DNA from: Psammoneis japonica
Taxonomy: Eukaryota
Direction of reading: 5' to 3'
Assembly: GCA_008632985.1 (NCBI GenBank)
Contig: QPGO01000283.1
Coordinates: forward strand, 54,631 to 74,630
DNA length: 20,000 nt
Of the stretch, positions 1-20,000 are shown piece by piece (within the stretch, counting starts at the first letter, position 1; each line of letters opens with the position of its first letter). The notes beneath the pieces are model-generated. The model worked only from the letters and a program-made list of their open reading frames with translations, was not told the origin of the DNA and ran no database searches. Position numbers and translations under genes: made by a program.

Positions 1-145
1 GGGAAACAGAGTGCTCCAGCTGGCAGCAGTCACTTGGAAAACACCAATTCCAGGAAAACAACTTCCCATTGAACAGCTTTGAACAGGCATGGACAGAAGA
101 GGAAAAGACATTCCAACACATTGCAAGGTGGATCATTGGCAGGCA

Positions 146-208
146 GATGCTTCTCAAAATGACAAAGCTGTTTCCCAAAGTGACGACCCTGCTTCTCAAA
201 ATAACAAC
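146..208 (+). repeat. Degenerate 21-bp tandem repeat, 3 copies
   Basis: Units gatgcttctcaaaatgacaaa / gctgtttcccaaagtgacgac / cctgcttctcaaaataacaac (DASQNDK-AVSQSDD-PASQNNN in the 89..418 frame). Confidence 0.6.
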
Positions 209-849
209 ACAGCTTTGACACCCAGCACCTTTCCTTTCAGGAAAAATTTACACACTGTGCCACAGACCATGACACAAGTGATGCATTCAACAGAAAACCT
301 GCTGCCGTGCAATTTGTCATCAAGCAACTCAAGCTGCATGGCTTCGCCTTTTTGTTGCAAGATGATTTTGATGATTTCCAAATGGACCAGCTCTTCGTGG
401 AATCTTGGAAGACAATGAAGGCCACACATGGCAAGCATTCTGTCTCCTGCCCCTCACACCAATCTGTCAAATCCCTCAAGTGTCCAATCCTTCTGGACCG
501 GTGCCAAGGCCCACTAAATGAAGAGTTTGAGACTGATGTTGAGAAGTGTGTGGAATGCAGGTTGAGAAAAAATGTTGCAAAGAAGAAGGTTGATTTGCCT
601 CCTCCCTCTTCTGTGAATGTCATGGAGGAAGACACCAACCACCCACACCAGTTTTCTCACCCAATGCACAATTGTTTGGAGAAGCATCATCACAAAAAGC
701 CACAGATGAAGGGCAATGGGCACACCGGATCAACACTTTCCAACATGTCCACACCTTTGCTTCCTTCCTTGAACACATTCTCTGTTGTCATGCGCATTGT
801 CACTGTTCCCACTTGCTTCCCAAGGAAATGCAGACAGACAACAAAGCCC

Positions 850-1895
850 TTGCATTTGGGGCAAAGAGGGTCATGGTGTGCATGGACACAATGATTTATT
901 GTGGCGACTCTGCCATTGACAATGACACAGGGAAAAATCATTCACAGCTTCACACACTGTTAAATTGATTGTTTGTGGGTGAGCCAATGCAAATGTGCAC
1001 GTCAACGGGTGAGAGGCTTTTGAAAACAAAAGCCAAAAAAATGTTAAAGACAGCCCAGAAGCAAGGAGAGGAAACCTTTGTGCACCAAACTTGTGAAAGG
1101 GTGTGTGTGAGTCCATGCTCTTTGATCATCATGTTGACACCCTGGACAGCACAAGCACAGGTGATGCGAGTGATGACATGGACAACTCCTCTGCAATGCT
1201 GGCCACGACCACCACACAAAAGATGCCTCATTTTGTGTTTGAACAGGATCAATTTGACAATGTCCTGTCAATGGATTGTTTTGGAAAGATGCACAAACCA
1301 AACAAAGAATCCGGCAAACCATGCAGGGCTTTCATTAAAGCAGTGCAAGAATTGGAGCCAAACCAGAGTCAATTCGAAACATGGAAGAAAGTGAAGCTCT
1401 CTGATGGGGAACATGTGTGTGCCCATCCACAACACGGCTCCAAGGAGGGCACCTCGTGTGATTGGGCAGCTGTTGACTTTGACATGGACAACGACTCAAA
1501 CGAGACATGCCCAGCGAGAGTTGTTGGCCTTTACAAGGACAATGCAGGCACTGTGAAGGCCGTTGTCCATTCAGCTGATTGCAAGCATGCAAGTCCACCT
1601 GCAGAGACACCAGGCTGTTCATGCATTGCCAACAAGAATTCCAAAGCAACGACAAGCCCTCCATGAGAAACGTTCCTGTCTCATCTGTAGAAAGCGTGGA
1701 TGCCTGTGCTTCCAAATGAAACACCACAAAGACCCAGTCCCACCTCAGATGTTGTCAGCCAACGCAAGGAAAGCACACACCATCATGGCAGTTTGTCCCA
1801 GAGTGGAGTGGGCTGAGACATTTGTCCAATGGACAAGGGAGATGATGATGCAAGAGGCCACCAAGACCAACTCAGCACACAGGTGCAGATTTTAG
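850..1895 (+). pseudogene. Decayed, frameshifted transposase-like C-terminal region (Plavaka/CMC-like DNA transposon, tentative)
   Basis: Fragments in changing frames: KNHSQLHTLLN*LFVGEPMQMCTSTGERLLKTKAKKMLKTAQKQGEETFVHQTCERV and VCAHPQHG...SCDWAAVDFD...CPARVVGLY. With C/H read back as Y they resemble the K.H..LH...FG.P...TG.E..K..AK...TQKR and Y.AHP.Y...YDWA.V.F...YPAR motifs I recall from such transposases. Pattern recognition only; boundaries approximate. Confidence 0.4.
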
Positions 1896-2891
1896 GTGTG
1901 ACAGGAGGCAGCTCCTAAACAACAGTTAAAGAACTGTTGGTCAGAGATGTGGCTGCGCAATTTTGACACAACCATCACAGATTTCCATGCGTCTTGCTCA
2001 TCATGCAGAATGACAAAACCAGGGCACCAATGCATTGTCCAATCAGCATGAATTGACATCAGAATGCCCACCACCCCCCGTTTTGGCAAGGAAATTGTGG
2101 ATTCCTTGGGAACAATCAGTGGCAAGTTGTTGAGAACATCCAGCTGGTTGCAATTTTCAAGATGCTGCCACACCATTTTAAAGTTTCCACACAACAACAG
2201 GCACATGATGAAGTGGGTGTGTTTGCATGTTGGATGCAAATTGCTTCTGTATTGCCTCAATTTGAAATGCTGCTGCAGCTTCCCATCCACCTTTGGTGCA
2301 TCAATGGTGTTGAATGGCCGATGGCTTTGATGGTGCAGTTGTCCATCCTCTCCTTGAAAAAAAAGTCTTTGATGTCCAGCTCCATGTGCCAGCCTTCTGC
2401 TTTCTTGAACAGGTGGGCATTGATGAAGCAGCAGCAGCAAGTCATTGTGGCTTGCATGCTGGGAACATCTCCTCAAATGCATTGCCCCAGGCAATCAGCC
2501 AGGCCAATGCAGTGTCAGCACATTTGTTGGCTTGGACCAATGCAACGGCAATTGATGCAGTTCCCCTTGGTTGGCAAAAGAGTGTCAATTTTATTTTGTG
2601 TCATTCCAAAGTTGCTCAAAAGGCAAATTATGTTCTTTTGCAAAAGTGCCACTTGTCATTCTGCAGCACTTGCCTCACCTCCATCAGCTGTGCAAGTGTG
2701 CAATCCTCAACAGGATTGGGAAACCACAGTGGAAAATCAACACCATCTGACATGGTGATCACGGAACTTTGACTGGGGGAACAGATTTGGGAAAATGAAC
2801 GACAGAAACCCAGCGACACATGTCAACCATTTGCTTGGTCGTGCATTGTTGCTCTGGAATTGTTCGACCAATCCGAGTGAGCAATTGTCAA
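1892..2891 (-). pseudogene. Decayed coding-like sequence of unknown product, interrupted by element A
   Basis: Protein-like fragments in several minus frames (DFPLWFPNPVEDCTLAQLMEVRQVLQNDKWHF; FINAHLFKKAEGWHMELDIKDFFFKERMD; VWQHLENCNQLDVLNNLPLIVPK). No family recognised. Confidence 0.25.
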
Positions 2892-3138
2892 TGACAGAAA
2901 TTGAAAATGACTGGGTGGAAGAAAACAATGACTCCTGACTGCTGTCTAAACAGCAGATGAGTCTACGTGCAGAGACCATCACAGGAGCCGAAAGACTGGT
3001 GTTGTGATGTTGGCACTGCTGTCATTGTTCTTTTGAGCTGAGTGGCTTGAAAGCAATGTGCATCATGCACATCACATGCGGAACTAAGAGGACATGCAAT
3101 TGTGTGTGACAAACTAAAATCTTGTTCAAATCCTGTCA
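2892..3138 (-). repeat. 3' LTR of element A (247 bp)
   Basis: Aligns end to end with 16620-16863; TG...CA termini; preceded on the minus strand by the PPT-position motif and the RNase H end. Confidence 0.92.
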
Positions 3139-3150
3139 CTTCCCAGTTTG
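3139..3150 (-). other. Putative plus-strand priming site (short PPT) of element A, CAAACTGGGAAG
   Basis: Abuts the 3' LTR; same motif in B and C (CAAACTGGGGAG). Confidence 0.6.
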
Positions 3151-6100
3151 ATTGAGGAGTCCACAGCAACAGATTCAAAATTGGATTGATCAAAGGCCTC
3201 GGGATCAAAGTTCCAAAACACAAGAGGATGGAGGAGGTTCCAAACCTGGGAGCAACCCCAGTGTTTGCTGAGGATGTCAGCATGATTGCGGGAACCTTCA
3301 ATGAAGTGGAACTCAAAGAAACCAGAGGCAATTGCCTCATGCACATGATGGAACAAGAGGACAGTGTGTTGCTTGTGTAACTTGGAGTGTGGCATGGGGC
3401 ACTGTCCACAACCAACTTGTTGTCCCCAAACATGCAACAGGTGTCACAGATTGGGACACCAAGGCAATGCAATGCAGTGCACAGATCAATGATCTGTTCA
3501 ATGCTTGTCCTTGCAACAACAAACTCAAATCCATGCATCACAGTCTTGACTGTTGCTGGTTTCTTGGAGAATCAATCAGCCAAGAACTTGTTGAGGAAAT
3601 GAGTGATGCCCGTGACTGAGCATCCGGTGAGCATGCAATGGAGAAAGTTTGCATCAACATGATGGGTTGTGGTGATGAACTTGCCAAGTGGCTTGGGCGC
3701 ATCTTGTGGGAGCAGCTCTTCTGCCTCCCCACACACAGATTGGGCCCAGTTGTGCATGGGCTTGGGGAGGTCCAAACTGTTGGGTTCCTTCATGCACACT
3801 TGGAGGGCACCATGTGGCAATGGACAAGAATCCACACACATGTTTGGCATGGTCCAGGTGGCCTTGATGGGGTGTGGCATGGAAACTGCACAGGGACATT
3901 ACGGCTGCAGCAACATCAATGTGACTGAGGGACACAGCCCATTGCAGGGAACCAATCAGGGATTGGAGTTGGTGGATGCCATCAGCTCTAAGTAATTCAG
4001 AGGTGATGAGCTCAGGGTGGTCTCCCTTCTCAAGAGGGGAAAGCACGCACAGTTGTTGACCATGTGCTCAATGCAATTGCAAGGAGCAAGGCACAGGGTG
4101 CCATTGGAATCATGGGTGAAGTTGCAACCAAGGTGGAACTCCAGTGGTCTAGTGCCCTTGAGCTTGAACTTGCATTTCTCTGTGAGAGTGTCTGCAAAAG
4201 CTTGGGGGTCCTTCATGGCAAAGGCCAGGTCGTCCACATGCACTGCCATGTGTTTGCAGTGGTCACCATCCAGATGTCGGGTTTGGCATGGCATGGGGAG
4301 AAACCTTCTGCATGCAAACAATTGGCAAAGCATTCATGCCACCTGAGGCCAGAGCTGTGGAATCCATGTGACGCCTTGTGGATGAAAAGGATGTGTCCTT
4401 CCAGCTTGCCACATTTGGGGCCTGCCACAATGTGCAGTTTCTCCTTGGTCGTGGCTTCAAGACAGGCATTCCCAATGTCGGTCAACCAAGTCTCTAGTTC
4501 ATTGAGTTTGGCCAGGAAGGTCATCAACCAAAGGCCGCAGAGGGACACTGCTCCAGAGCAGACACTGTCAATGGGTGTGTCTGTGAGGTGTCCATCAGCA
4601 ACAAGTCGTGCTTTGTGCCTTCCATCATGTTTGATGTCACAGACAAGATCCACCCTAATCTTCTTGTGTCCTGCTGGGGCACTGGAGTCCTTGCAGTGTC
4701 TGCAATCATGAAAGACCTCACACTCACCAAGCTGAGTCATCTCAAGGTCCATTGCATCTCCCCACTTGTGGTTGCCATTGCGCTCCTCAAGGGCCAAGGC
4801 ATGCTTGCAATCCTGGGGCACTTCACACCCATGCTTGCATCGTGATGCAGTGCAGAACGAGCACAGCTTGGCTTGGTTGGCTGTGCAGAATGGCTTTTTC
4901 TGGTGCAGAGCCACACTTTGGAAGCATTTTCATCCATCAGTTTTGAGCAAACCATGCTCACATGCATGGATGGCACAAGTGATGGATTGTCTTTGGCAAT
5001 GATGGCAAGAGGTTCCAACGTGATCTTCCCATTCTCCCATTCAAGCATGATGTTGTAGCTTGAGCCTTTCCAGGAGGGGTGATGAGGTCTCAATGGTCCT
5101 TTGTGTGAGACGATGTGTCAGAACTTCCAGAGAGCAGAGTCCTTGTCTTCCTGCTCAATGTGGTGCATGATGTCATTGCAGGCAAGGATTTCCTCACATT
5201 CATCATTGTCAATGGTGCAAATGAATTTGACTGGTTCTGGGTTGTTGCCAATTTCCCAGTCATGGTCTTCAACAGCCTTGATGATGCGGGCTCTGCAGTG
5301 TTGTCCGTCTTCTTGTGGCTTCAAGAGGAAGGTGCATCCAATGATGTCCTCGGGGTCAAAGACCGGCATTTTGGGCATCCTGATCACCTCCACATCTGGT
5401 GAATCTGGTGAATCCTTGGAGTCTTGTTGAGTTTTGATGATGGGTTTGGCAAATTTTTCATCGGGAGGGTCAAGATGCAGGTTGGAAGCAGACGGGTCAT
5501 GGGCGGAATGCACGTTGGAGTGGCAAAGAATCTTCTGAGCATTGTCAGAAAGAATTTTGAACGTCATTTGATGACCCACCGGTTCAGCAATGCCGATGAA
5601 GGGACCACACAACTTGCGGGATTCAGACGGCCAGTCAGAATCATCAAGGTGGTGGCACACAGGTTCCCACGATTAAAAGCGGAGGAGGGGGCTGATGTCG
5701 GGGGTGGATCTGGACAGCACTTTGGTGGGAGCATGCCAGTGAAGCTTGGCAGATGCTGCATGGTCAAGCACAAAGCACATGCACATGAGGGCCACAAGCC
5801 AGGTGCAGGCCGGGGATCCAAGCAATCCATGATGGTGTTGGCCATGTTCTTCACAGTTTGGTGGCAGCGCTCAGCAAAATTCTGGTGTTGTTGGTGGGGC
5901 TGGCTTTGCTGACTGGAGATGAAGAGGGCACGAAGGATGCTGAGAACCTTGTCACTGATCTCAACCTGAGCACGGTCACTGATGAGCTTGGACGGAGCAC
6001 CACGGTTGTGAATGTTGTCTTTGAGCATGTTGATGAATTCCTTGTCAGTCTTGGTGCTGCACACATCCATGATGTTGGATTCCATGCCAAGGAAGAGCTG

Positions 6101-8138
6101 AGTGCTGACACATCTAGAGTCAATGGCAGGGGTGTCAAAGTGCACCACATCAGTGGCAACGGGTTCATTACGTTGGTGGACATTGAGAGCCGGGTTGGGC
6201 AACTTGCATGCCTTTTTCAGGTGCATGCTGATGGGCATGTGAGCATGCTGTGTCATGCAATCAAAAGTCCTGCAAACAGTGTCCTTTGGGAGGAAGCCAT
6301 GGCAGTGGCGGAGGGACTCACAATGGTTGGGATCCTTGGGGTTGATCTCACTCTCATGGCAATCATAGAAAAAATCAGATGTTGGGATGATGTGGTCATC
6401 AAGGATGGAGTTCACAAGCATGGCATTGTGGATGACATGTTGGTGGCGATGGTTGCCAAACTCATCAAAGAGGTTGGTGGTTGGGTTGTCTTTGAGGTCT
6501 GACATGGTGCCATGCCACGTCTCATTGTCTGTGAACTGTTGGTCGAGGATGGATGGGTCCCAGGTGTCATCACCAGTGAGGATGACATCAGGCAGAGTGT
6601 CCCATTCCGCATTGGTGTGCAGTCATGTTGCAATGTGTGGCAGGCTGCCTTTGATGTCAATGGGGATGACGTGCCTGTCAATGGTGGTGATGTGCTGCAG
6701 ACCATTGGGGACCTTGATCGACCGATCGTTGATGTCATGTTTGCACAACTTGAGTTGGCCGCACAAGTGCATGGTCTTGCCCTTTCCAGTGCAGGTGCAC
6801 CAGTGAAGGATGGCAACAATGGGTCCACATTGTGTGTGGATTGCACCACAGGCAGTGACAATGGGAATGTTGACAAGCTGATGGTTGTCCATGTGTCAAC
6901 CTGGTGATCAGTGTGGGTGATGACATGAACATCATCACCAGCGATGCCACAATTTGTGCCAAGATCTATGAGAGCACCCTTGTGAGTTGAGTTGTGTGTT
7001 GAGGCGGAGTCCACAACATTGTGGTCATTGGCACAACGGCAAGTGTGACTGTTGATCTCAATGTTGGTGGCAGCATCACAGGAGAATGTTGATCCAGGGA
7101 GTTTGTCACTAGAGCGGGCCAAGGGTGGCCTGTTGGGTGCAAGGAGATGTTGCAAGTCACTGGGTGACAGAGGCTTGTGCTTGGTGAGGTGCACCAGGAT
7201 GGGGTTAGCATCAGTTGCATCGGCTGCAGTGTCAGGTGGTTTGGGGGCCGACGCAAGATCATGGGCATTGGCAAACAAGTTGACATTGCCATTGCTGCCC
7301 AGATGGAAGGGTCATGCAGGTTCACAGCCATTGAGTCATGGCAGTTGCTGGCACGGGCAGTGCGCAAGCCAAGGATGATGGCCTTGGTGGACTGAGGCAA
7401 GGTGTCCCAGATGCGCTGGTGATCTGGTGGATTGCAATGCCATTGTTCCCTGGTGAGGGAGGAGGCACCACGAGTCTGTGCAACATGAGCCTGGATGACA
7501 TCAATGTCACTGTCAATGTCGAAGAACACATCATCATCAGGGTCATCGGGGGCCAGGTCATGGGCACTGACAGTGTGGCACAGAGTGCATGAGGCCGTCT
7601 TGGGGATGAACGTGCTGTCCTGCTGTGCTGCCATGGAAAGCAGGAGCCCACAACATTGCTCATGTGAAAGGCTTGTGCCATTCAGTGTGCAATGCTGATT
7701 GGCTTGGTTCCACATCTGAATGGAGTTTGTTGCCAGGGTGAATGGCATTCTCATGCATGACACGTTTCTGGCCAGCAGAGAAGCAGTCTGCAGTCAGGAT
7801 CAGAGCTTTGCACTTGCAAAGTTGGTCATGCCAGTGAAGTGTGAAGGCATGGGTGGTGTCTTTCCAGGTGCCATCACCAAGGCGAGCAGTGCTGAGATGT
7901 GCAACAAGGGTCGATGACTCCAGGATGCACAGGCAGATGCAAGGGCACACTTGGACAGTTCACGGTGCACTGCTTGAGCATCAGACATGTTCACAAATGA
8001 GAGCCTTGCCCTTGTCATTTTGCAAGATGTGCTCAAACACAGCAAACATGCATTTCTGTTGTTCAGCAAACAGGGCTTTGTCCTCAGCCACAGAGGGCTT
8101 GCATGTCAGATCAAGGATGCGGTCAATGTCCTGAGAGT

Positions 8139-8143
8139 GGGCC
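8139..8143 (+). repeat. Left target-site duplication of element B (GGGCC)
   Basis: Identical 5-mer at 15252-15256 immediately after the 3' LTR. Confidence 0.95.
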
Positions 8144-8419
8144 TGACAGGATTTGAACAGGATTTAGGTGCGCGCGAAATGTCGCGCGCTGTTTAGTTTA
8201 CCGCGCACAGTTTTGTGTGCTTTGGTTCCGCGCGTTCGCGCGCGATGTAGTTTGCTTTCGAGCCACAAGGCTCACAAGAATAATGACAGTAGCCCGATTA
8301 TACCGACTTACACGTCTTTCGGCTCCTGCAACGGTCTCTGAGCGGAGACTCATCTGCCATGTAGACAGCAGCAAGGAGTTGTTGTTTGAATTCTTGCCAT
8401 TTGCCTTCAATTTCTGTCA
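8144..8419 (+). repeat. 5' LTR of element B (276 bp)
   Basis: TGACAGGATTTGAA...TTCAATTTCTGTCA; 15 substitutions and no indels versus 14976-15251 (manual alignment). Confidence 0.97.
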
Positions 8420-8430
8420 GATTAACAGTC
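8420..8430 (+). other. Putative primer-binding site complementary to a tRNA-Asn(GUU) anticodon arm (GATTAACAGTC)
   Basis: Directly follows the 5' LTR; reverse complement GACTGTTAATC reads as stem GA + loop CT-GTT-AA + stem TC; conserved in A at 16609-16619. Confidence 0.6.
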
Positions 8431-9249
8431 TTGCTCATTGTCAACCCATTGAGCAACCGCCATCGTCGTCGTTGATTTACCGACGACGCTATTTCAATTC
8501 TGCGTGGACCTCCGTGTGTGTTCTACATACATCGGCAAGTTTACGTGCGTTCAACACCAGGCATCGGCAGGAATTTAACGTCACCGTCAAGTCTCCTTAC
8601 CGCTGGATGTCTGGATTGATTGTGCCACCTTTGATCGCTGAAGACATGCATCAACGGTCATATCCAAGTCTATCCTTGATCCTCATCCCTTGACACACCC
8701 ATTCAATGGTTAACGGTCAAGAACCCTACATATTCAAGGATCTTCGTCGCTGAAGACACACATGTGTACATGTCTTCACGGCCAAGGACTTGAACCCACC
8801 CTTTGGACTGCGGCTTTGCCACCACTCTACAAGCACGCCGAGTCTATTGTACCTGATCTACCCCGGACCACTGGTGCTCTACAGTTCTACTAGGTCCACG
8901 AGGACAACTGTGAGAGCAAGCAGCCGTGATTGCAGCCTACGTTGGGGCGAGGGTGTTTTCCCGCGTTTGTTCGTTCGTCCACAGCGCCTAACGCCTACGT
9001 CAACTGGCCAGCCTGATCGGGAAATCCAACCGACATAAAATAAGAACGGTTCGGGGGTCTTGTCCACCTCTAGTCAGCTTACCTGCAGGGGGTTTACAAC
9101 CCGCTACTCCGCTCATAAGCAACCCAAAGCGCCACTGGCTGCGGGTGCGGACGTGCCGGCACAACTCTACGGACCGGATAGGAAGTTTAGCACTTGACAA
9201 CGAACGGGATAGCAAAGCCCAGCGACTTCTGATTTTAAGGTAGTTCAAG

Positions 9250-9304
9250 ATTTCAAGTCAAGTCTATTTCAAGTCAAGTCTATTCTCACCCAAGTTTCAA
9301 GTCT
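9250..9304 (+). repeat. TTTCAAGTCAAGTCT-type tandem repeats in the 5' leader of B
   Basis: 16-bp unit atttcaagtcaagtct x2 (9250-9281) plus caagtttcaagtct; homologous array in A at 15807-15867. Confidence 0.8.
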
Positions 9305-9364
9305 ACCTTCACCACCTTCGCTTCCCAACAAGAATTGCTTGTCCTGACACCACTTTTGTCTGCC

Positions 9365-12300
9365 ATGGTTCTCACTTGTCAGCAACAAACCGATGGTTTC
9401 GAGCACGTTGTTGGAACCGTGCTTGCCCAAGGTGCTGGGAGCCCTCTTCGTTTGGCTTTGACCCAAGACGGCACAGACTCGCACCAAGAACTGTTCACGT
9501 TCATACCGTCCCAAATCGACTCGCTTGAGTACGACAACGGCACTAGTGTGATCCCTTTGCCCCGCAGTTATAAGAACATGTTAGCAGCTCTAATTAGTCT
9601 GTACATTGTCAAAGCACATGAAGGTCTTGACGTTGCCAATGACTCCTCGTTGTTCACGCATGACGAGTTCCTTGCCTGCCGCCTCAGCCCCGACTACATG
9701 TCTTCTGTGTCCGTCGGCAGCTCACCCCTCGCACCTCCGCATGTCACCAACCCGACCAAGGCACGCGACCCGGTACGAGACTTCAAGCGAGGCATCAAAC
9801 GTGACCCCACCGCTTTCACGGCTCTCAAATCCGACAAGCAGTGGCACACTTGGCACACCTCACTTGTGGCACAAGCCCGTGCCCAAGACGTCGAGTGCAT
9901 TCTAGTCTCGTCGTACAAACCGACCAGCCCCGAAGACAAACTGCTCTTTGCTGAACAGCAAAAGTACATGTTTGCCGTCTTCGAACGCATTCTTCTCACC
10001 GACAAGGGCAAGGCTCTCATTCGCGAAAATGTGGGGTCTTCTGATGCCCAGACCGTCTACCGCGCCTTGTCTGAGCATGCGCTCGCCTCCACCCGCGCAT
10101 CCATTGAGTCCTCCACCTTGCTCACGCACCTTGCCACCGCACGTCTTGGTGATGGCACTTGGAAAGGTCCGACCCACGGGTTCATCCTTCATTGGCAGGA
10201 TCAGTTGCGCAAGTGCGAGGCACTCATCCCGGCCAGTGACCACTTCTCTGAAGGACAGAAGCGCGTCATGCTCGAGAATGCCGCACACCCTGTCGAGGAA
10301 CTCCGTGCTGTCAAGAACCAAGCTGATCAGCATCGTACGCAGAGTGGCAAGAGCCTCACATGCGATCAATGCTGTGGCTTGCTCCTCTCCGCGGCGGCTC
10401 AATACGACAGTGCGTTTCAACCCAAGACGACACCTCAAGCTCCCCGACGTGCCACACACACACACGATGTCCACTCCGAGGAACCGTCCGACGATGTGTT
10501 CTACGACATTGACAGCGACATTGACGTCCTTCAGGCTAATGCTGCCTACACCCGTGGTCCCAGCCTCACCGGTGACCAATGGAAACGTCTCCCTCCCGAC
10601 CACCAACGGATTTGGGATTCGTTGCCCCATTTCTCCAAGGCGATCATCCTTGAGCATTCTCGTCCGCCTCCCCGCAACCCGCGAGCCAGCAACTGCCATG
10701 AGTCTGTTATGGCCAACCTTCATGACCAACGCCTTGGGAGTGACGGTGATGTCAACTTGTCCAACACGACTCCTGCTGACTCTGGTGACCCCGCTCCAAA
10801 TGTGGGTGCCACTTTGGATAATCCCATCCTGGCGCACCTCACCAAGCACAAGCCACTGCCACCCGGTGATCTGCAATGTCTGTTGTCTCCTAACCAAGCC
10901 CCCAACGCCAGTCGACCAGGGCCATCCGCCGCTCCCTCTACTCCGCCAGCTCCTGCCGATGACATGGAACTTAACGGCCACACTTGCCGCCGCGTTAACA
11001 ACCACAAATGCTCTGCCTCTGCTCATTGCTCCACACGCACTGGTGCTCTAGTCAATCGTGGGGCCAACAGCGGCATTGCTGGCGACGACGTCCGCGTCAT
11101 TGCACGCACCTCTCGCCAAGTCGACGTTCAGGGCATTGACGACCACCAATTGGTGGACATCCCCATTGTCACCGCTGGTGCCGTCATTGAGACCCAGCGT
11201 GGTCCCGTCATCGCCATCCTCCATCAGCACGCACACACGGGCAAGGGCAAGACCATTCATTCCTGTGGCCAGCTCGAATGGTACAAACAGGATGTCAACG
11301 ATCGCTCTGTCAAGGTGCCCAACGGCTTGCAACGTATTGCCACCCCTGATGGCTATGTCATCCCCATTGACATCAAGGGCGGCCTGCCTTGTGTTGCCAT
11401 GCGACCTTACACTGATGCCGAATGGGACACCCTGCCCCATGTCATCCTCACCGGTGATGACACATGGGATCCTTCCGTCCTCGATCACTCTGTCACTGAC
11501 GATGACCAGTGGTACGACGCGATCTCTGACCCACAGGACGATCCCACTGCCAACCTGTTTGACGAATGCGGCAACTGCCGTCATCGTGTCGTTGTCAACG
11601 AGACCATCATGTCCGCTTCCTTGTCTGCCGATCATGCGTCAGCCCTCGATGATCACCTCATTCCGAACGACGACGTGTTCTGCGCGTGTCATCTACACGC
11701 GGTTGACCCCAAGGACGCCGACGTCCCGCCCCCGGAGCGCACTGTGCAACCCAAGGACCCCCCCTTCGAGTCTCTTCGGCCTAACTTTGGCTTCCTGCCT
11801 GCCGATGCGGTCCGTCGCACTTTTGACTGCACCACGCAGTACGCCCGCATGCCCACCGGTACACACCTCAGGAAGGCCTGCAAATCACCCAACCCCGCCC
11901 TTAATGTGCACCGCCGCAACGAGCCTATCGCCACTGACACAGTTTATGCCGACACCCCGGCCGTCGACTCTGGTTGCACCAGCGCCCAACTGTTTGTTGG
12001 CACCAAGTCTACCGTCACTGACGTCTGCGGCACCAAGACGGACAAGGAGTTTGTCAACACACTTGAGGATCAGATCCATGAGCATGGTGCCCCATCCAAA
12101 CTCACAAGTGACCGTGCTCAAGTTGAGATCAGCAACAAGGTGCTCGGGATTCTACAAGCCCTCTTCATCTCCAGCTGGCAAAGTGAGCCTCACCAGCAAC
12201 ACCAGAACTTTGCCGAGCGTCGACACCAGACCGTGAAGCGCATGGCGAACACTGTCATGGACCGTTTCGGTTCGCCTGCCCACACATGGCTGCTGGTGCT

Positions 12301-15028
12301 CATGTACATGTGCTTCACACTCAACCATGCAGCGTCCCCACGTCTCCACTGGCGCGCGCCCCTCGAGACTCTCACTGGCTCCACCCCGGACATCAGCCCA
12401 TTGCTTCGCTTTCACTGGTGGGAACCCGTGTGCTTCCACCTCGATGACTCCGATTGGCCGTCCGAATCCCGTGAGTTGCGTGGACGCTTTGTTGGCATTG
12501 CTGAGCACGTCGGCCACCAGATGACCTTCAAGATTCTCTCTGACGAGACTCAGAAGATCCTCTGCCGGTCCAACGTACGCTCCGCCACCACCGATCCTGC
12601 CGTTTGAAACCTGCGTCTTGATCCTCCTGATGGGGAGCCACCTGAACCCATCATCAAATCTCGCCATGACAACAACCCCATCGATTCTCCTGATGGGGAG
12701 ATCAGGACACCCAAGATGCCAGTTTTCGATCCGCAAGACATCATTGGACGCACCTTCCTCATGCAGCCACAAGAGAACGGACAACGCCACAGAGCTCACA
12801 TCGTCAAGGCCGTCGAAGACCATGAATGGAAAGTGAACGGCAATCCCGAGCTCACTAAGTTTGTCTGCTCTGTCAACAATGACGAACACGAGGAAGTCCT
12901 TGCCTGCAACGACATCATGAATCACATTGAGCAAGAAGACGAAGACACTGCTGTTTGGAAATTTCGACGCATTGTGTCACACGAAGGACCTCTGAAGCCT
13001 CATGACCCAACCTGGAAAGGCTCAAGCTACAACATCATGCTTGAATGGGAAAGTGGGGAGATCACGTCCGAGCCTCTTGCCATCATCGCCAAGGACGACC
13101 CCGTCACCTGCACCATCTATGCACGAGAGAACGGACTTCTCGACACTGATGGCTGGAAGCGGTTCCGCACCATCGCGAGGCGCCAAAAGAAGCTATTTCG
13201 CATGGCCAACCAAGCCAAGCTTCGCTCCTTCCACACTGCACCTCGCTACAAGTACGGATGCGAAGTTCCCCGGAACTACAAACACGCCATGTCACTAGAC
13301 GAACGCAACGGCAACCGCAAATGGGGAGACGCAACTAACCTCGAGATGGACCAACTCGAGGAATACGAAGTCTTTCATGACTGCGGGCCCTCCGAGTCTT
13401 CCACTCCTCCTGCGGGACACAAGAAGATCCGAGTGCACCCAGTGTACGACGTGAAACACGACGGACGCCACAAGGCACGACTCGTAGCCGATGGGCACCT
13501 CACGGATGTACCTGTCGACAGTGTCCACTCCGGAGTAGTCTCCCTCCGTGGCCTTCGGCTGATGATTTTCCTGGCCGAACTCAACGAGTTAGAGACATGG
13601 GCCACCGACATTGGCAATGCCCACCTTGAAGCCACCACCAAGGAGAAGCTCTACATTGTGGCCGGACCCGAATTTGGCAAACTCGAAGGACACATCCTTG
13701 TCATCCACAAGGCCCTGTATGGACTGCGCAGCTCTGGTCTCCGCTGGCACGAGCGCTTCGCCGACTGCCTGCGAGCTGAAGGATTCTTCCCCTGCCGTGC
13801 CGAACCTGACATTTGGATGTGCAGGAACGGCGACCACTGTGAATACATTGCCGTTTGTGTGGATGACCTCGCCATTGCTGTGAAGGACCCTCAATCTTTC
13901 GTCGACACTCTCACGGAAAAGTACAAGTTCAAGCTCAAGGGCACGGGACCCATTGAGTTCCATCTGGGTTGCGACTTTTCCCGGGATCCCGACGGAACCT
14001 TGTGCCTGTCTCCGCGCAAGTGCATCGAGCGCATGGTTGACAGCTACGCCCGACTGTTTGGGGAGAAACCTGCCACCAATGCCCTGTCACCTCTGGAGAA
14101 GGGTGACCACCCCGAACTGGACACTTCCGAACTGCTGGGGCCCGATGGCATTCACAAGTTCCAGTCTCTTGTTGGTTCACTCCAGTGGGCAGTGTCCCTT
14201 GGCCGAATTGACATCACCACGGCCGTCATGTCACTCTCTAGCTTCCGAGCTGCGCCCCGTCAAGGCCACTTGGACCGTGCCAAACGCGTCTGTGGTTGCC
14301 TCTCCAAGATGCGACACGGCGCTCTCCGCGTTCGTACGGAAGAGCCCGACTGTTCGGATCTCCCTGCTCCGGCCCATGAATGGATGCATTCCGTGTACGG
14401 CAAAGCAGAAGAGATGATCCCGAAGGATGCTCCACCGCCCCTTGGCAAGTTCGTCACTACCACCCACTACGTCGATGCAAACTTGTACCATTGCATGCTC
14501 ACCGGACGCTCTGTCATGGGAATGCTCCACTTCCTCAACAAATTCCCAGCTGATTGGTTCTCTAAGAAGCAAGCTACCGTGGAGACTGCGACCTGCGGGT
14601 CTGAATTTGTTGCCGCAAGGACTTGTGTCGAACAGATTGTCGACCTGTGCATCACCCTGCGCTACCTTGGCGTCCCGATCCGCAATGTCAGTTACATGTT
14701 CGGTGACAACAAGTCGGTTGTAGACAGTGCCACCATCCCGCACTCCAAGTTACACAAGCGACACACCGCACTATCGTTCCACCATGTGCGTGAGGCGATT
14801 GCCTCTGGTTACCTTGAGTTCCACTTCATCGAAGGTTCCCGCAACCCTGCTGACATTCTCAGCAAGCATTGGGGTCACTCCCAAATCTGGGACCTTCTCT
14901 GCCCCCTCATGTTCTGGAACTTCATTCCATCCGAAGTCGAATCTGTTTCTGTGACTCCTCAAGCAAACTGGGGAGTGACAGGATTTGAGTGGGATTTAGG
15001 TGCGCGCGAAATGTCGCGCACTGTTTAG
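9365..15028 (+). pseudogene. gag-pol polyprotein of element B (about 1887 codons, one frame; nonsense at 12605-12607 and mutated catalytic motifs)
   Basis: ORFs 9335..12607 and 12716..15028 are in the same frame. ATG at 9365 (MVLTCQQQTDG) matches A (MVLTRQQQTDG). PR GALVNRGANSG (~11045), IN core ATD...SDRAQVE...QNFAERR (~11930-12230), RT KARLVADG/KALYGL/CVDDL (~13470-13870), RNase H YVDAN/SEF/FGDNKS/NPADILSK (~14465-14865). Confidence 0.95.
14964..14975 (+). other. Putative short PPT of element B (CAAACTGGGGAG), inside the pol frame
   Basis: Abuts the 3' LTR TGACA; identical in C at 17517-17528 (minus strand). Confidence 0.6.
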
Positions 15029-15251
15029 TTTGCCACGCACAGTTTTGTGTGCTTTAGTTCCGCGCGTTCGCGCGCGATGTAGTTTGCTTTCGAGCCACAA
15101 GGCTCACAAGAATAACAACAGTGGCCCGATTATACCGACTTACACGTCTTTCGGCTCCTGCAACAGTCTCTGAGTGGAGACTCATCTGCTGTTTAGACAG
15201 CAGCAAGGAGTTGTTGTTTGAATTCTTGCCATTTGCCTTCAATTTCTGTCA
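14976..15251 (+). repeat. 3' LTR of element B (276 bp)
   Basis: Direct repeat of 8144-8419, followed by TSD GGGCC. Confidence 0.97.
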
Positions 15252-15256
15252 GGGCC
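15252..15256 (+). repeat. Right target-site duplication of element B (GGGCC)
   Basis: Matches 8139-8143. Confidence 0.95.
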
Positions 15257-15755
15257 TGTGCGATGATTGAGGTGTGCCACATGTGCCACTGTTTGTTGGA
15301 CTTAAGAGTTGCGAGTGTGAGTGGGTCATGTTTGATGCCTTGTTTAAAGTCACACATGGGGTCATGTGGTTTTGGGGGCAATGAGCCAGGCATGGGAGCA
15401 GATGGCACGGCACCCATGGAGAGGGATGCTGTGCACTCAGGACTAAGACAACAGTCAGTGAATTCTTCATGTGTGAAAAAGGTGGGATGTCAGCACCTTC
15501 GCACACTTTTGCCATGCACAGACTAATTGACACAGCCATCTGTGCTTTGCAGCCACATGGCAAGGGCGTTTGATTGGCGCCGTTGTTGTTAACTGGGGCA
15601 CAGAGTTGAGTCGGAGTAAAAGTGAAGACATCCTGGCATGAGTCTGTGCTGTCAATGCTGAGGGCTGAGTGCAATGGACTGTCTGTGGCTTGATTCAGAA
15701 CAGTGCCTAAGATGTGCTCAAGGCCATCAGTTTGTTGCTGTCTGGTGAGGACCAT
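15252..15755 (-). pseudogene. gag N-terminus of element A, cut off by insertion of B
   Basis: MVLTRQQQTDGLEHILGTVL... and DFKQGIKHDP...KSNKQWHMWHTSIIAQA align to B gag; one frameshift. Confidence 0.9.
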
Positions 15756-15806
15756 GGTGCAACTGAGTGGGTGCCGGAACTGGAGTTGGAGGGTGAGCTT
15801 AAAACA

Positions 15807-16608: not shown

Positions 16609-16619
16609 GACTGTCAATC
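16609..16619 (-). other. Putative primer-binding site of element A (GATTGACAGTC)
   Basis: Same position and sequence as in B except one TA>TG change. Confidence 0.55.
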
Positions 16620-16863
16620 TGACAGAAATTGAAGATGACTGGGTGGAAGAAAACAGTGACTCCTTGCTGTCTGAACAGCAGATGAGTCTCTGTGTAGAGA
16701 CCATCACAGGAGCTGAAAGACTGGTGCAGTGACACCGGTGCTGCTGTCATTGTTCTTGTGAGCCAAGTGGCTTGAAAGCAAACTACATCATGCACGTTGC
16801 GCACAGAACCAAGAGAACACACAATTGTGTGTGACAAACTAAAATCTTGATCAAATCCTGTCA
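16620..16863 (-). repeat. 5' LTR of element A (244 bp)
   Basis: Homologous to 2892-3138; followed on the minus strand by the PBS-like motif, leader and gag. Confidence 0.92.
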
Positions 16864-17236: not shown

Positions 17237-17516
17237 TGACAGAAATTGAAGGCAAATGGCAAGAATTCAAACAACAACTCCTCACTGCTGTCTAAACAGC
17301 AGATGAGTCTCTGCTCAGAGACCGTCACAGGAGCCGAAAGACGTGCAAGTCGGTATAATCGGGCTGCTGTCATTGTTCTTGTGAGCCGAGTAGCTCGAAA
17401 GCAAACTACATCTCGCACGCGCACGCGCGGAACTAAAGAGCACACAAAACTGTGCGCGGTAAACTAAACAGCGCGCGACATTTCGCGCACACCTAAATCC
17501 TGTTCAAATCCTGTCA
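17237..17516 (-). repeat. 3' LTR of element C (280 bp)
   Basis: Reverse complement of the B LTR with two 2-bp insertions; TGACAG...CTGTCA termini. Confidence 0.95.
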
Positions 17517-20000
17517 CTCCCCAGTTTGCTTGAGGAGTCACAGAAACAGATTCGACTTCGGATGGAATGAAGTTCCAAAACATGAGGGGACGGAGAAGGT
17601 CCCAGACTTGGGAGCAACCCCAATGCTTGCTGAGAATGTCAGCAGGGTTGCGGGAGCCTTCGATGATGTGGAACTCAAGGTGGCCAGAGGCAATCGCCTC
17701 ACGCACACGGTGGAGCGATAGTGCGGTGTGTCGCTTGTGTAACTTGGAGTGCGGGATGGTGGCACTGTCCACAACCGACTTGTTGTCACCGAACATGTAA
17801 CTGATGTCACGTGTCGGGACACCGAGGCAACGCAGGGTGATGCGCAGGTCGATGATCTGCTCGACACAAGTCCTTGTGGCAACAAATTCAGACCCGCAGG
17901 TCGCAGTCTCCACGGTGGCTTGCTTCTTAGAGAACCAATCAGCCGGGAATTTGTTGAGGAAGTGGAGCATTCCCATGACAGAGCGTCCGGTGAGCATGCA
18001 ACAATGCAAGTTTGCATCGACGCAGTGGGTGGCAGTGACAAACTTGCCAAGGGGCAGTGGAACGTCCTTCGGGATCATCTCCTCTGCTTTGCCACACACG
18101 GAATGCATCCATTCACAGGTCGGTGCAGGGAGATCCAAACAGTTGGGCTCTTCCGTGCGAACGTGGAGAGCGCCGTGTCGCATCTTGGAGAGGCACCCAC
18201 AGACGCGTTTGGCACGATCCAAGTGGCCTTGACGGGGTGCAGCTCGGAAGCCAGAGAGTGACATGACGGCCGTGGCAATGTCAATTCGACCAAGAGACAC
18301 TGCCCATTGGAGGGAACCAACAAGAGACTGGAACTGTTGAATGCCATCGGGCTCCAGCAGTTCGGAAGTGTCCAGTTCGGGGTGGTCACCCTTTTCCAGA
18401 GGGGGACAGGACGTTGGTGGCAGGTTTCTCCCCAAACAGTCATGTGCAGCTGTCGACCATGTGTTCGATGTGCTTGCGCGGAGACAGACACAAGGTGCCG
18501 TCAGGATCCCGGGAGAAGTCGCAGCCTAGATGGAACTCAATCAGTCCCGCACCCTTGAGCTTGAACTTGTGCTTTTCCGTGAGAGCATTGACGAAAGATT
18601 GAGGATCCTTCATGGCAATGGCGAGGTCATCCACATAAACGGCAACACATTCGCAGTGGTCGCCGTTCCTGCGCATCCAAATGTCGGGTTCGGCGCGGCA
18701 GGGAGAGAAACCTTCAGCTCACAGGCAATCGGCGAAGCGCTCGTGCCAGTGGAGGCCGGAGCTGCGCAGTCCATGCAGGGCCTTGTAGATGACGAGAATG
18801 TGGCCTTTCGAGTTTGCCAAACTCGGGTCCAGCTACAATGTACAGCTTCTCCTTGGTGGTGGCTTCAAGGTGGGCATTGCCAATGTTGGTGGCCCATGTC
18901 TCCAACTCGTTGAGTTCAGCCAGGAAAATCATCAGCCGAAGGCCACGAAGGGACACTGCTCCAGAGTAGACACTGTCGATGGGTACGTCCGTGAGGTGTC
19001 CATCGGCTGCGAGTCGTGCCTTGTGGCGTCCGTCGTGTTTCACGTCGTACACTGGGTGCACTCGGATCTTCTTGTGTCCCGCAGGAGGAGTGGAAGACTC
19101 GGAGGGCCCGCAGTCATGAAAGACTTCGTATTCCTCGAGTTGGTCCATCTCGAGGTTAGTTGCGTCTCCCCATTTGCGGTTGCCGTTGCGTTCGTCTAGT
19201 GACATGGCGTGTTTGTAGTTCCGGGGAACTTCGCATCCGTACTTGCAGCGAGGTGCAGTGTGGAAGGAGCGAAGCTTGGCTTGGTTGGCCATGCGAAATA
19301 GCTTCTTTTGGCGCCTCGCGATGGTGCGGAACCGCTTCCAGCCATCAGTGTCGAGAAGTCCGTTCTCTCGTGCATAGATGGTGCAGGTGACGGGGTCGTC
19401 CTTGGCGATGATGGCAAGAGGCTCGGACGTGATCTCCCCACTTTCCCATTCAAGCATGATGTTGTAGCTTGAGCCTTTCCAGGTTGGGTCATGAGGCTTC
19501 AGAGGTCCTTCGTGTGACACAATGCGTCGAAATTTCCAAACAGCAGTGTCTTCGTCTTCTTGCTCAATGTGATTCATGATGTCGTTGCAGGCAAGGACTT
19601 CCTCGTATTCGTCGTTGTTGACAGAGCAGACAAACTTAGTGAGCTCGGGGTTGCCGTTCACTTTCCAGTTGTGATCTTTGATGGCCTTGACAATGCGAGC
19701 TCTGTGGTGTTGTCTGTCCTCTTGTGGCTGCATGAAGAAGGTGCATCCGATGATGTCTTGCGGATCGAAAACTGGCATCTTGGGTGTCCTGATCTCCCCA
19801 TCAGTTGAATCGACGGGGTCATTGTCATGGCGAGATTTGATGATGGGTTCAGGTGGCTCCCCATCAGGAGGATCAAGACGCAGGTTTCGAACGGAGGGAT
19901 CGGTGGTAGCGGATCGTACATTAGACCGGTGGAGGATCTTCTGAGTGTTGTCAGAAAGAATCTTAAAGGTCATCTGGTGGCCGATGTGTTCAGCAATGCC
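17464..20000 (-). pseudogene. pol of element C (integrase C-terminal region, RT, RNase H), disrupted
   Basis: ORFs 18714..19973, 18440..18676 (YVDDL), 17464..18435; +1 frameshift at 18806-18808, CGA>TGA stop at 18440-18442, +1 frameshift in the G run at 18401-18405. Confidence 0.93.

Follow-up and report, generated by a model that had tools for sequence, protein, structure and literature searches.

Half-tRNA priming, in which the site beside the 5′ LTR is complementary to the anticodon stem-loop of a tRNA instead of its CCA end, is established for two Ty1/copia-type elements, Drosophila copia and yeast Ty5. Both use tRNA-iMet, and their primer must end on the 3′ side of the anticodon stem, 1–2 nt in, in a loop context of ..U36 A37 A38 N39 C40. 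A review attributes the primer end of Ty5 to an internal cleavage of the RNase P type. Other tRNAs have been predicted for further lineages. In plants, half tRNA-Met is reported for Osser, Bryco and Gymco-II and half tRNA-Ile for Bianca, and in fungi an internal tRNA-Lys site, ATTAAGAGTCT, is given for FunCo1. For rust fungi, a study of Helenus TRIMs and the Copia families that partner them (Kojima 2024, PMC10886601) lists anticodon-loop primers from tRNA-iMet, tRNA-Tyr, tRNA-Ile and tRNA-Asp, together with the remark “tRNA-Asn-GTT chosen once”; its text calls one and the same primer tRNA-Asp in one place and tRNA-Asn-GTT in another. Eight Helenus consensus internal regions in its supplement have ATTAACAGTC at or near their start, six of them as (c)GATTAACAGTC, and the other two begin with cAATTAACAGTC or carry AATTAACAGTC.

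Here, we analysed a stretch of 20,000 nt (the window) that is a nest of copia-type LTR retrotransposons, one of which, element B, carries a site of this kind. Like copia and Ty5, element B is of the Ty1/copia type and its site lies beside the 5′ LTR, matches an anticodon stem-loop and not a CCA end, and shares the geometry of the primer end and the loop. It differs in that the matching tRNA is Asn(GUU) and not iMet(CAU), in that its host is probably a diatom, in that a hairpin abuts the site, and in that its proteins are so divergent that Pfam recognises RVT_2 only. The iMet anticodon (CAU), which delimits the narrow copia/Ty5 group, is therefore not what the element B site matches. With Osser, Bryco, Gymco-II, Bianca and FunCo1, element B shares a class of site that is predicted from sequence and characteristic of a lineage, with another tRNA and other hosts in each case; the published FunCo1 site is essentially one letter away from that of element B, opposite anticodon position 34. 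The Helenus TRIMs of PMC10886601 have the identical 11-mer (six consensus regions), 5-bp duplications and, as that study reports, anticodon-loop priming. Unlike element B, these are fungal and non-autonomous, have tRNA-like LTRs and mostly an extra C before the site, and extend it with GAA, not TTG.

In the literature searched, we found no element of a diatom or another protist that is described as primed by half tRNA-Asn, the only precedent found in print being fungal, and the searched passages of the paper on CoDi, the diatom copia elements, contain no discussion of primer sites. An earlier note on this DNA had called the primer unusual. The tRNA-Asn anticodon arm on which that view was based is supported by the present analysis, but the primer is less novel than the note suggested, since anticodon-arm priming beyond iMet is already in print (Ile, Lys, Tyr and Asp/Asn).

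Element B and the copies around it

As an LTR retrotransposon of the Ty1/copia type, element B is complete, with TG..CA LTRs, a 5-bp target-site duplication, a polypurine tract and an RVT_2 reverse transcriptase (Table 1). Its two LTRs differ at 15 positions over 276 nt, 14 of them transitions, and the 5′ LTR terminates in ...TTTCTGTCA at 8419. The LTR ends are fixed by the repeat pair, by the GGGCC duplication and by contigs of host sequencing runs: in a DNA run rich in family copies, contigs have loose ends or diverge exactly at 8144 and 8419, and host-run contigs that end before 8144 finish in GGGGAG. Contigs of four DNA runs contain the LTR edges of element B together with transition-rich variation.

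Table 1. Features of element B, of the older copy A and of the third copy C in the window (strand given relative to the sequence as presented)
Feature	Position	Strand	Evidence or remark
Target-site duplication GGGCC, left copy, element B	8139..8143	+	identical 5 letters at 15252-15256
5′ LTR, element B, 276 nt, TGACAG...CTGTCA	8144..8419	+	94.6% identity to 14976-15251
Putative primer-binding site core GATTAACAGTC	8420..8430	+	complementary to tRNA-Asn(GUU) positions 30-40
Variable 3-nt extension (TTG), also first 3 nt of hairpin	8431..8433	+	possibly pairs with tRNA positions 27-29
Hairpin TTGCTCA / TGAGCAA, 12-nt loop, abutting primer site	8431..8456	+	fold energy and family junctions
Polyprotein part 1: gag-like, protease, integrase; open frame 9239-12607	9365..12604	+	homologue alignment, family profile
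Polyprotein part 2: RVT_2 reverse transcriptase and C-terminal part	12608..15025, frame to 15028	+	RVT_2 match
Polypurine tract GGGGAG	14970..14975	+	immediately 5′ of 3′ LTR
3′ LTR, element B	14976..15251	+	repeat pair with 8144-8419
Target-site duplication GGGCC, right copy, element B	15252..15256	+	identical to 8139-8143
Putative primer-binding site of copy A, GATTGACAGTC, one TA-to-TG change	16609..16619	-	sequence match
5′ LTR of older copy A	16620..16863	-	74% identity to LTR of B
3′ LTR of older copy A	2892..3138	-	GGGAAG tract adjoining at 3139-3144
3′ LTR of third copy C, body beyond window edge	17237..17516	-	92% identity to LTR of B; GGGGAG tract 17517-17522

The second frame of element B matches RVT_2 (PF07727) with an E-value of 1.4e-24 and 87.5 bits against a cut-off of 31.6. 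RVT_2 was the only Pfam family found in single sequences of the lineage, in which no gag, protease, integrase or RNase H family was detected, and single polyprotein pieces gave zero Pfam matches even at an E-value of 10. The integrase was located by comparing a family profile with retroviral integrase cores, which match at profile positions 910–1009 (E-values 1.2e-4 to 4.5e-4). An integrase upstream of RVT_2 is the gene order of Ty1/copia. The polyprotein is split by one in-frame stop (12605-12607), where relatives have a single frame of 1834–1937 aa (n = 18); this stop and the LTR divergence of 5.4% indicate that element B is probably dead.

Where the protease active site is expected (approximately 11040-11075), the consensus of the family is VDRGANGGIAG, with D-R-G in place of the customary D-S/T-G. 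The leader of element B is long, with approximately 945 untranslated nt (8420-9364) before the methionine to which the polyprotein start of relatives aligns; in some relatives, similarity continues upstream of this methionine (query residues 17–20).

Element B is inserted in the gag gene of the older copy A, in the opposite orientation, and the protein match of copy A breaks between residues 211 and 216. Copy A lies on the minus strand, with gag at 15244-15770 and pol at 3113-8148, and no matching target-site duplication was found at its ends (GTCAA versus ACCGA). Beside its 3′ LTR, 2870-2891 (minus strand) resembles a decayed primer site with a hairpin arm (TTGACAATTGCTCAC, compared with GATTGACAGTCTTGCTCA in copy A), and this flank may be the remnant of a tandem or recombined element. 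TpA is strongly depleted, with observed/expected ratios of 0.21 for the whole window, 0.06–0.08 for its older parts (strongest in 1-8138) and 0.38 for element B. TG and CA are in excess (1.3–2.1), and CpG stands at 0.22 in the older parts. The sole change in the primer site of copy A, TA to TG, is seen alongside this depletion of TpA.

Conservation of the primer site and the adjoining hairpin

Positions 8420-8439 read GATTAACAGTCTTGCTCATT and begin at the first base past the 5′ LTR of element B, and TGG is absent from 8420-8500; on both counts the earlier note had described the site correctly. The window holds three matches to the 11-mer GATTAACAGTC with at most one mismatch, against 0.19 expected, and none of 200 shuffles attained three. 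One of these is the site of copy A, which the note had taken as conserved: the site is indeed present at 16609-16619 on the minus strand, but just 10 of its 11 letters match. The third, at 7047-7057 on the minus strand, falls within the coding part of the older copy and is probably due to chance. An antisense open frame that starts from an ATG at 8437-8435 was considered and rejected; it has approximately 45 codons and lies in sequence that is unconserved among relatives.

We aligned the first frame of element B with 24 full-length homologues and used the alignment to fetch related loci, which gave 79 loci from metagenome contigs with 32–67% identity to the window. GATTAACAGTC occurs exactly on the element strand of 35 of these loci (37 matches, 0.2 expected) and on the other strand of none, and two further loci have GATTAACAGTT instead. 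Over the 79 loci the commonest 11-mers are AGATTAACAGT (37 loci) and GATTAACAGTC itself (35 loci), both above any coding word; these are followed by a coding word that had served as a pattern in the search (33 loci) and by GGGGAGTGACA (30 loci). The last consists of the polypurine tract and the first five letters of the LTR (14970-14980), and its presence in 30/79 loci nearly matches that of the primer site.

The conservation is confined to a short segment. To the left of the motif only the final letters of the LTR are kept in the family, as ..tCA or ..tTA, and to the right there are 0.4–0.8 bit over three letters, then background, with nothing conserved past 14 nt; the 2 bits of the motif itself in this profile arise by construction, since the rows were selected for the motif. 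In three loci with both LTRs present (L016, L046 and L063) the repeat ends at the base that precedes the motif, and for 13 more loci LTRs of 244–793 nt follow from the spacing between the polypurine word and the motif. The earlier note had proposed conservation of the motif in intact family members as a check, and the outcome is favourable: besides the 35/79 exact occurrences, an uninterrupted frame of at least 1700 aa is found in 18 of the 37 loci that bear the motif exactly or with one mismatch. The motif is absent from 42 of the 79 loci, most of which apparently cannot be scored, as they seem to be fragments or to finish in the 3′ LTR followed by flank. Among the copies in the host, the variant rows listed for contigs of DNA runs contain no common variant in 8362-8481, and because neighbouring bases are equally free of variants in these rows, the host copies do not single out the primer site.

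The nearest Atlas clusters are labelled Eukaryota, most commonly Bacillariophyta, with the phylum known for two members only; a cluster look-up of seven homologues yielded no names, and a marine plankton metagenome is among the sequencing runs with a weak match. The lineage of element B is a divergent Ty1/copia lineage that is abundant in aquatic metagenomes and probably comes from diatoms.

The three letters that follow the 11-mer form a limited set, namely GTA, ACA, GCA, TCG, TTG and seven rarer triplets, with a purine in third place at 31 of 33 distinct junctions. When the triplet labels are mapped onto an integrase tree of 37 rows, they need 19 changes (minimum 11, shuffled mean 26.3), and TTG requires at least four origins and GCA at least five. 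In retroviruses, the plus strand re-copies the primer site from the primer. The recurrence of a few triplets in separate branches fits such re-copying, although the triplet is also made up of the first three bases of a hairpin and the two readings of it are thereby not separated.

This hairpin begins where the 11-mer ends. In 21 of 34 distinct junctions, the 40 nt that follow the 11-mer are paired from their first base in the minimum-energy fold, and a contiguous helix of at least 5 bp starts exactly after the 11-mer in 19/34, compared with a mean of 5.8 and a maximum of 13 in 500 shuffles, a count that is not to be read as a probability because the rows are related. A start one base earlier is found in 5/34 junctions and starts from three bases further on in 1 to 10/34. 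When a start 0–2 nt past the motif is allowed, 23/34 junctions have such a helix, with 21 different arm words. The real evidence for the hairpin is this sharp step at the edge of the motif together with the differing sequences of the arms. In the family the commonest stem is 6–7 bp and many loops are 12–14 nt, both lengths being variable; the hairpin of the window has a fold energy of −9.7 kcal/mol (z −2.6). Another candidate, in which CTGT at the LTR end would pair with ACAG in the site, was rejected, as the LTR ends vary among relatives. In the parts of the half-tRNA copia literature that were available, we found no description of a hairpin abutting the site.

Proposed pairing with tRNA-Asn and competing explanations

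The complement of the site, GACUGUUAAUC, equals positions 30–40 of a printed tRNA-Asn of the E. coli type, the row of which is labelled Asn/GUC, yet the sequence bears the anticodon GUU. The stem pairs G30-C40 and A31-U39 enclose the loop CUGUUAA. The earlier note's reading of a GUU anticodon loop that ends at tRNA position 40, flush with the LTR, thus agrees with the printed tRNA. In this register the partner anticodon must be GUU, since the A, A and C of the site opposite positions 36, 35 and 34 cannot wobble.

Real tRNA-Asn genes commonly have this arm, as seen in a count that is partly circular. Among 118 stretches of viral contigs that contain the word followed by a T-arm, ARAGORN found a tRNA in 105, with 106 calls of tRNA-Asn(gtt) and one each of Gln and Tyr. 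The full arm predicted for the window, CAAGA/UCUUG, occurs in 33 prokaryotic stretches, 30 of which were called tRNA-Asn, and in these stretches the stem is always preceded by AGAGC and one purine. Measured against this arrangement, in which GAGC lies 2 nt closer to the 5′ end, the GAGC of the window is 2 nt out of register and the match to the tRNA ends at position 27. The GAGC that had been taken as D-stem-like is therefore present in its letters only, and its identification as a D-stem is rejected. ARAGORN found no tRNA in the window and none in the 79 related loci.

In eukaryotes the arm differs between groups. Animal and plant tRNA-Asn reads GGCUGUUAACC at positions 30–40, and the 11-mer is hence not universal among eukaryotes; yeast tRNA-Asn carries the same anticodon arm as the complement of the site. 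The partner tRNA-Asn(GUU) of element B would be expected to read GACTGTTAATC, not GGCTGTTAACC, at these positions. The arm of the tRNA-Lys(CUU) type, GACUCUUAAUC, is one base away from the element B site, and a switch of primer between Lys-CUU and Asn-GUU would need a single change because the arms differ by one base. Overall, the complementarity supports a pairing of the site with the anticodon arm of tRNA-Asn(GUU) in the half-tRNA register, with position 40 flush with the LTR.

Four other explanations were weighed. In the first, the primer would be a pre-made, stress-induced 5′ half of tRNA-Asn, released by a host anticodon nuclease, and transposition would be coupled to this cleavage, a link that the earlier note had raised. 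Such a link has some appeal, as the site needs a tRNA that is cut near the anticodon and a diatom small-RNA study describes abundant tRNA fragments, some of which span the D-loop to the anticodon. In the small-RNA table for P. tricornutum, tRNA-Asn reads are mostly 19 nt with no pattern flagged, and CTGTTAA was not found in the small-RNA supplements for T. pseudonana. The geometry speaks against it: the pairing reaches C40 flush with the LTR, which places the required cut in the stem, beyond position 40. Stress nucleases of the RNase A/T2 type cut within the anticodon loop, and the resulting 5′ halves stop short of position 40, with a terminal 2′,3′-cyclic phosphate that prevents extension. 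Such a cut would cost the duplex 2 to 7 of its 11 pairing bases. For the primer end of Ty5, the review names RNase P-type cleavage. Loop-cutting stress nucleases are thus unlikely as the source of the primer, and we regard the explanation as a whole as improbable.

Slightly less credit still goes to the proposal that the 11-mer is a cis signal with another role (packaging, dimerisation or recognition of the LTR edge by integrase) and that priming occurs otherwise. The covarying hairpin that abuts the 11-mer would suit such a signal, and in fungal GalEa copia elements a conserved hairpin site replaces the primer-binding site. However, the motif shows the full set of anticodon-arm features: C32, U33, a GUU anticodon, A37, A38 and two mutually complementary closing pairs. 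The motif is non-palindromic and lies exactly at the position required of a primer-binding site, no other candidate site and no TGG follow the LTR, and the identical word is the site of unrelated fungal TRIMs.

It is very improbable that the primer is some other small host RNA ending in ...GACUGUUAAUC. In a tRNA context, the motif belongs to tRNA-Asn in 106 of 108 ARAGORN calls. We know of no small host RNA with this end other than tRNA-Asn. Moreover, a very conserved partner is required, since the site is invariant over a deep lineage (integrase identity down to 32%) and recurs in rust fungi.

Self-priming of the Tf1 type, in which the 5′ end of the element transcript would fold onto the site and which is predicted for other copia lineages, has next to no chance of applying here, since the complement of the site is absent from the LTR of element B at up to three mismatches, the element strand of the 79 loci contains no exact complement and a one-mismatch match in two loci only, and the LTRs vary around a constant site, the reverse of what self-priming predicts.

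A proposed priming mechanism and its significance

We consider it likely that element B uses a half of the cytoplasmic tRNA-Asn(GUU) as its primer, with a site of 11 nt, perhaps 14 nt, and a hairpin that bounds the duplex. The 11 nt after the 5′ LTR would pair with tRNA positions 30–40, or perhaps 14 nt with positions 27–40, in a duplex that takes in the loop CUGUUAA together with the two pairs that close it, G30-C40 and A31-U39, and possibly the remaining 5′ side of the stem. As described for copia and Ty5 with tRNA-iMet, cleavage would fall on the 3′ side of the anticodon stem and separate positions 40 and 41, and the 3′-OH at C40 would prime minus-strand strong-stop DNA; if reverse transcription starts from this 3′-OH, the cut must fall there. 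The hairpin that starts right after the 11-mer would fix the length of the primer–template duplex. The sequences show the anatomy of the element, the invariant site, the hairpin and the match of the motif to a tRNA-Asn arm, and from this arrangement we infer the host tRNA-Asn as the partner, the place of the cut and the cutting agent.

How the cut would be made can be approached through Tf1 of S. pombe, in which an RNA duplex of 11 bp, flanked by structure, is cleaved by RNase H where the primer strand ends on its 3′ side. Element B would share with Tf1 the 11-bp duplex, the flanking structure and the geometry of the cut. It differs in that the primer strand of Tf1 is the 5′ end of its own transcript, for which no counterpart was found in element B. 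A more speculative and rather doubtful extension of half-tRNA-Asn priming is that the 11-bp duplex between the LTR edge and the covarying hairpin acts as a ruler, that the RNase H of the element cuts intact tRNA-Asn in place as in Tf1, that half-tRNA priming and self-priming are thus one cleavage mechanism, and that the 3-nt extension reports the tRNA-Asn isodecoder. If true, this would explain how lineages switch between half-tRNA priming and self-priming and between tRNAs with similar arms, and the extension, re-copied in each cycle, would be usable to assign metagenomic elements to hosts.

The primer type itself is already known; the new details are that a hairpin abuts the site and that the site is invariant throughout the lineage. 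Standard LTR annotation reports “no PBS” for such elements because its tools seek tRNA 3′ ends, and CA followed directly by GATTAACAGTC offers a simple marker word for half-tRNA-Asn elements. How the primer acquires its 3′ end is unsettled for copia and Ty5, and the hairpin beside the site offers a concrete clue that can be tested. A whole abundant copia lineage of protists keeps one invariant 11-nt site that matches an anticodon arm, and half-tRNA priming of this lineage, which we consider likely, would widen the range of the mechanism beyond iMet and beyond fungi, plants and insects.
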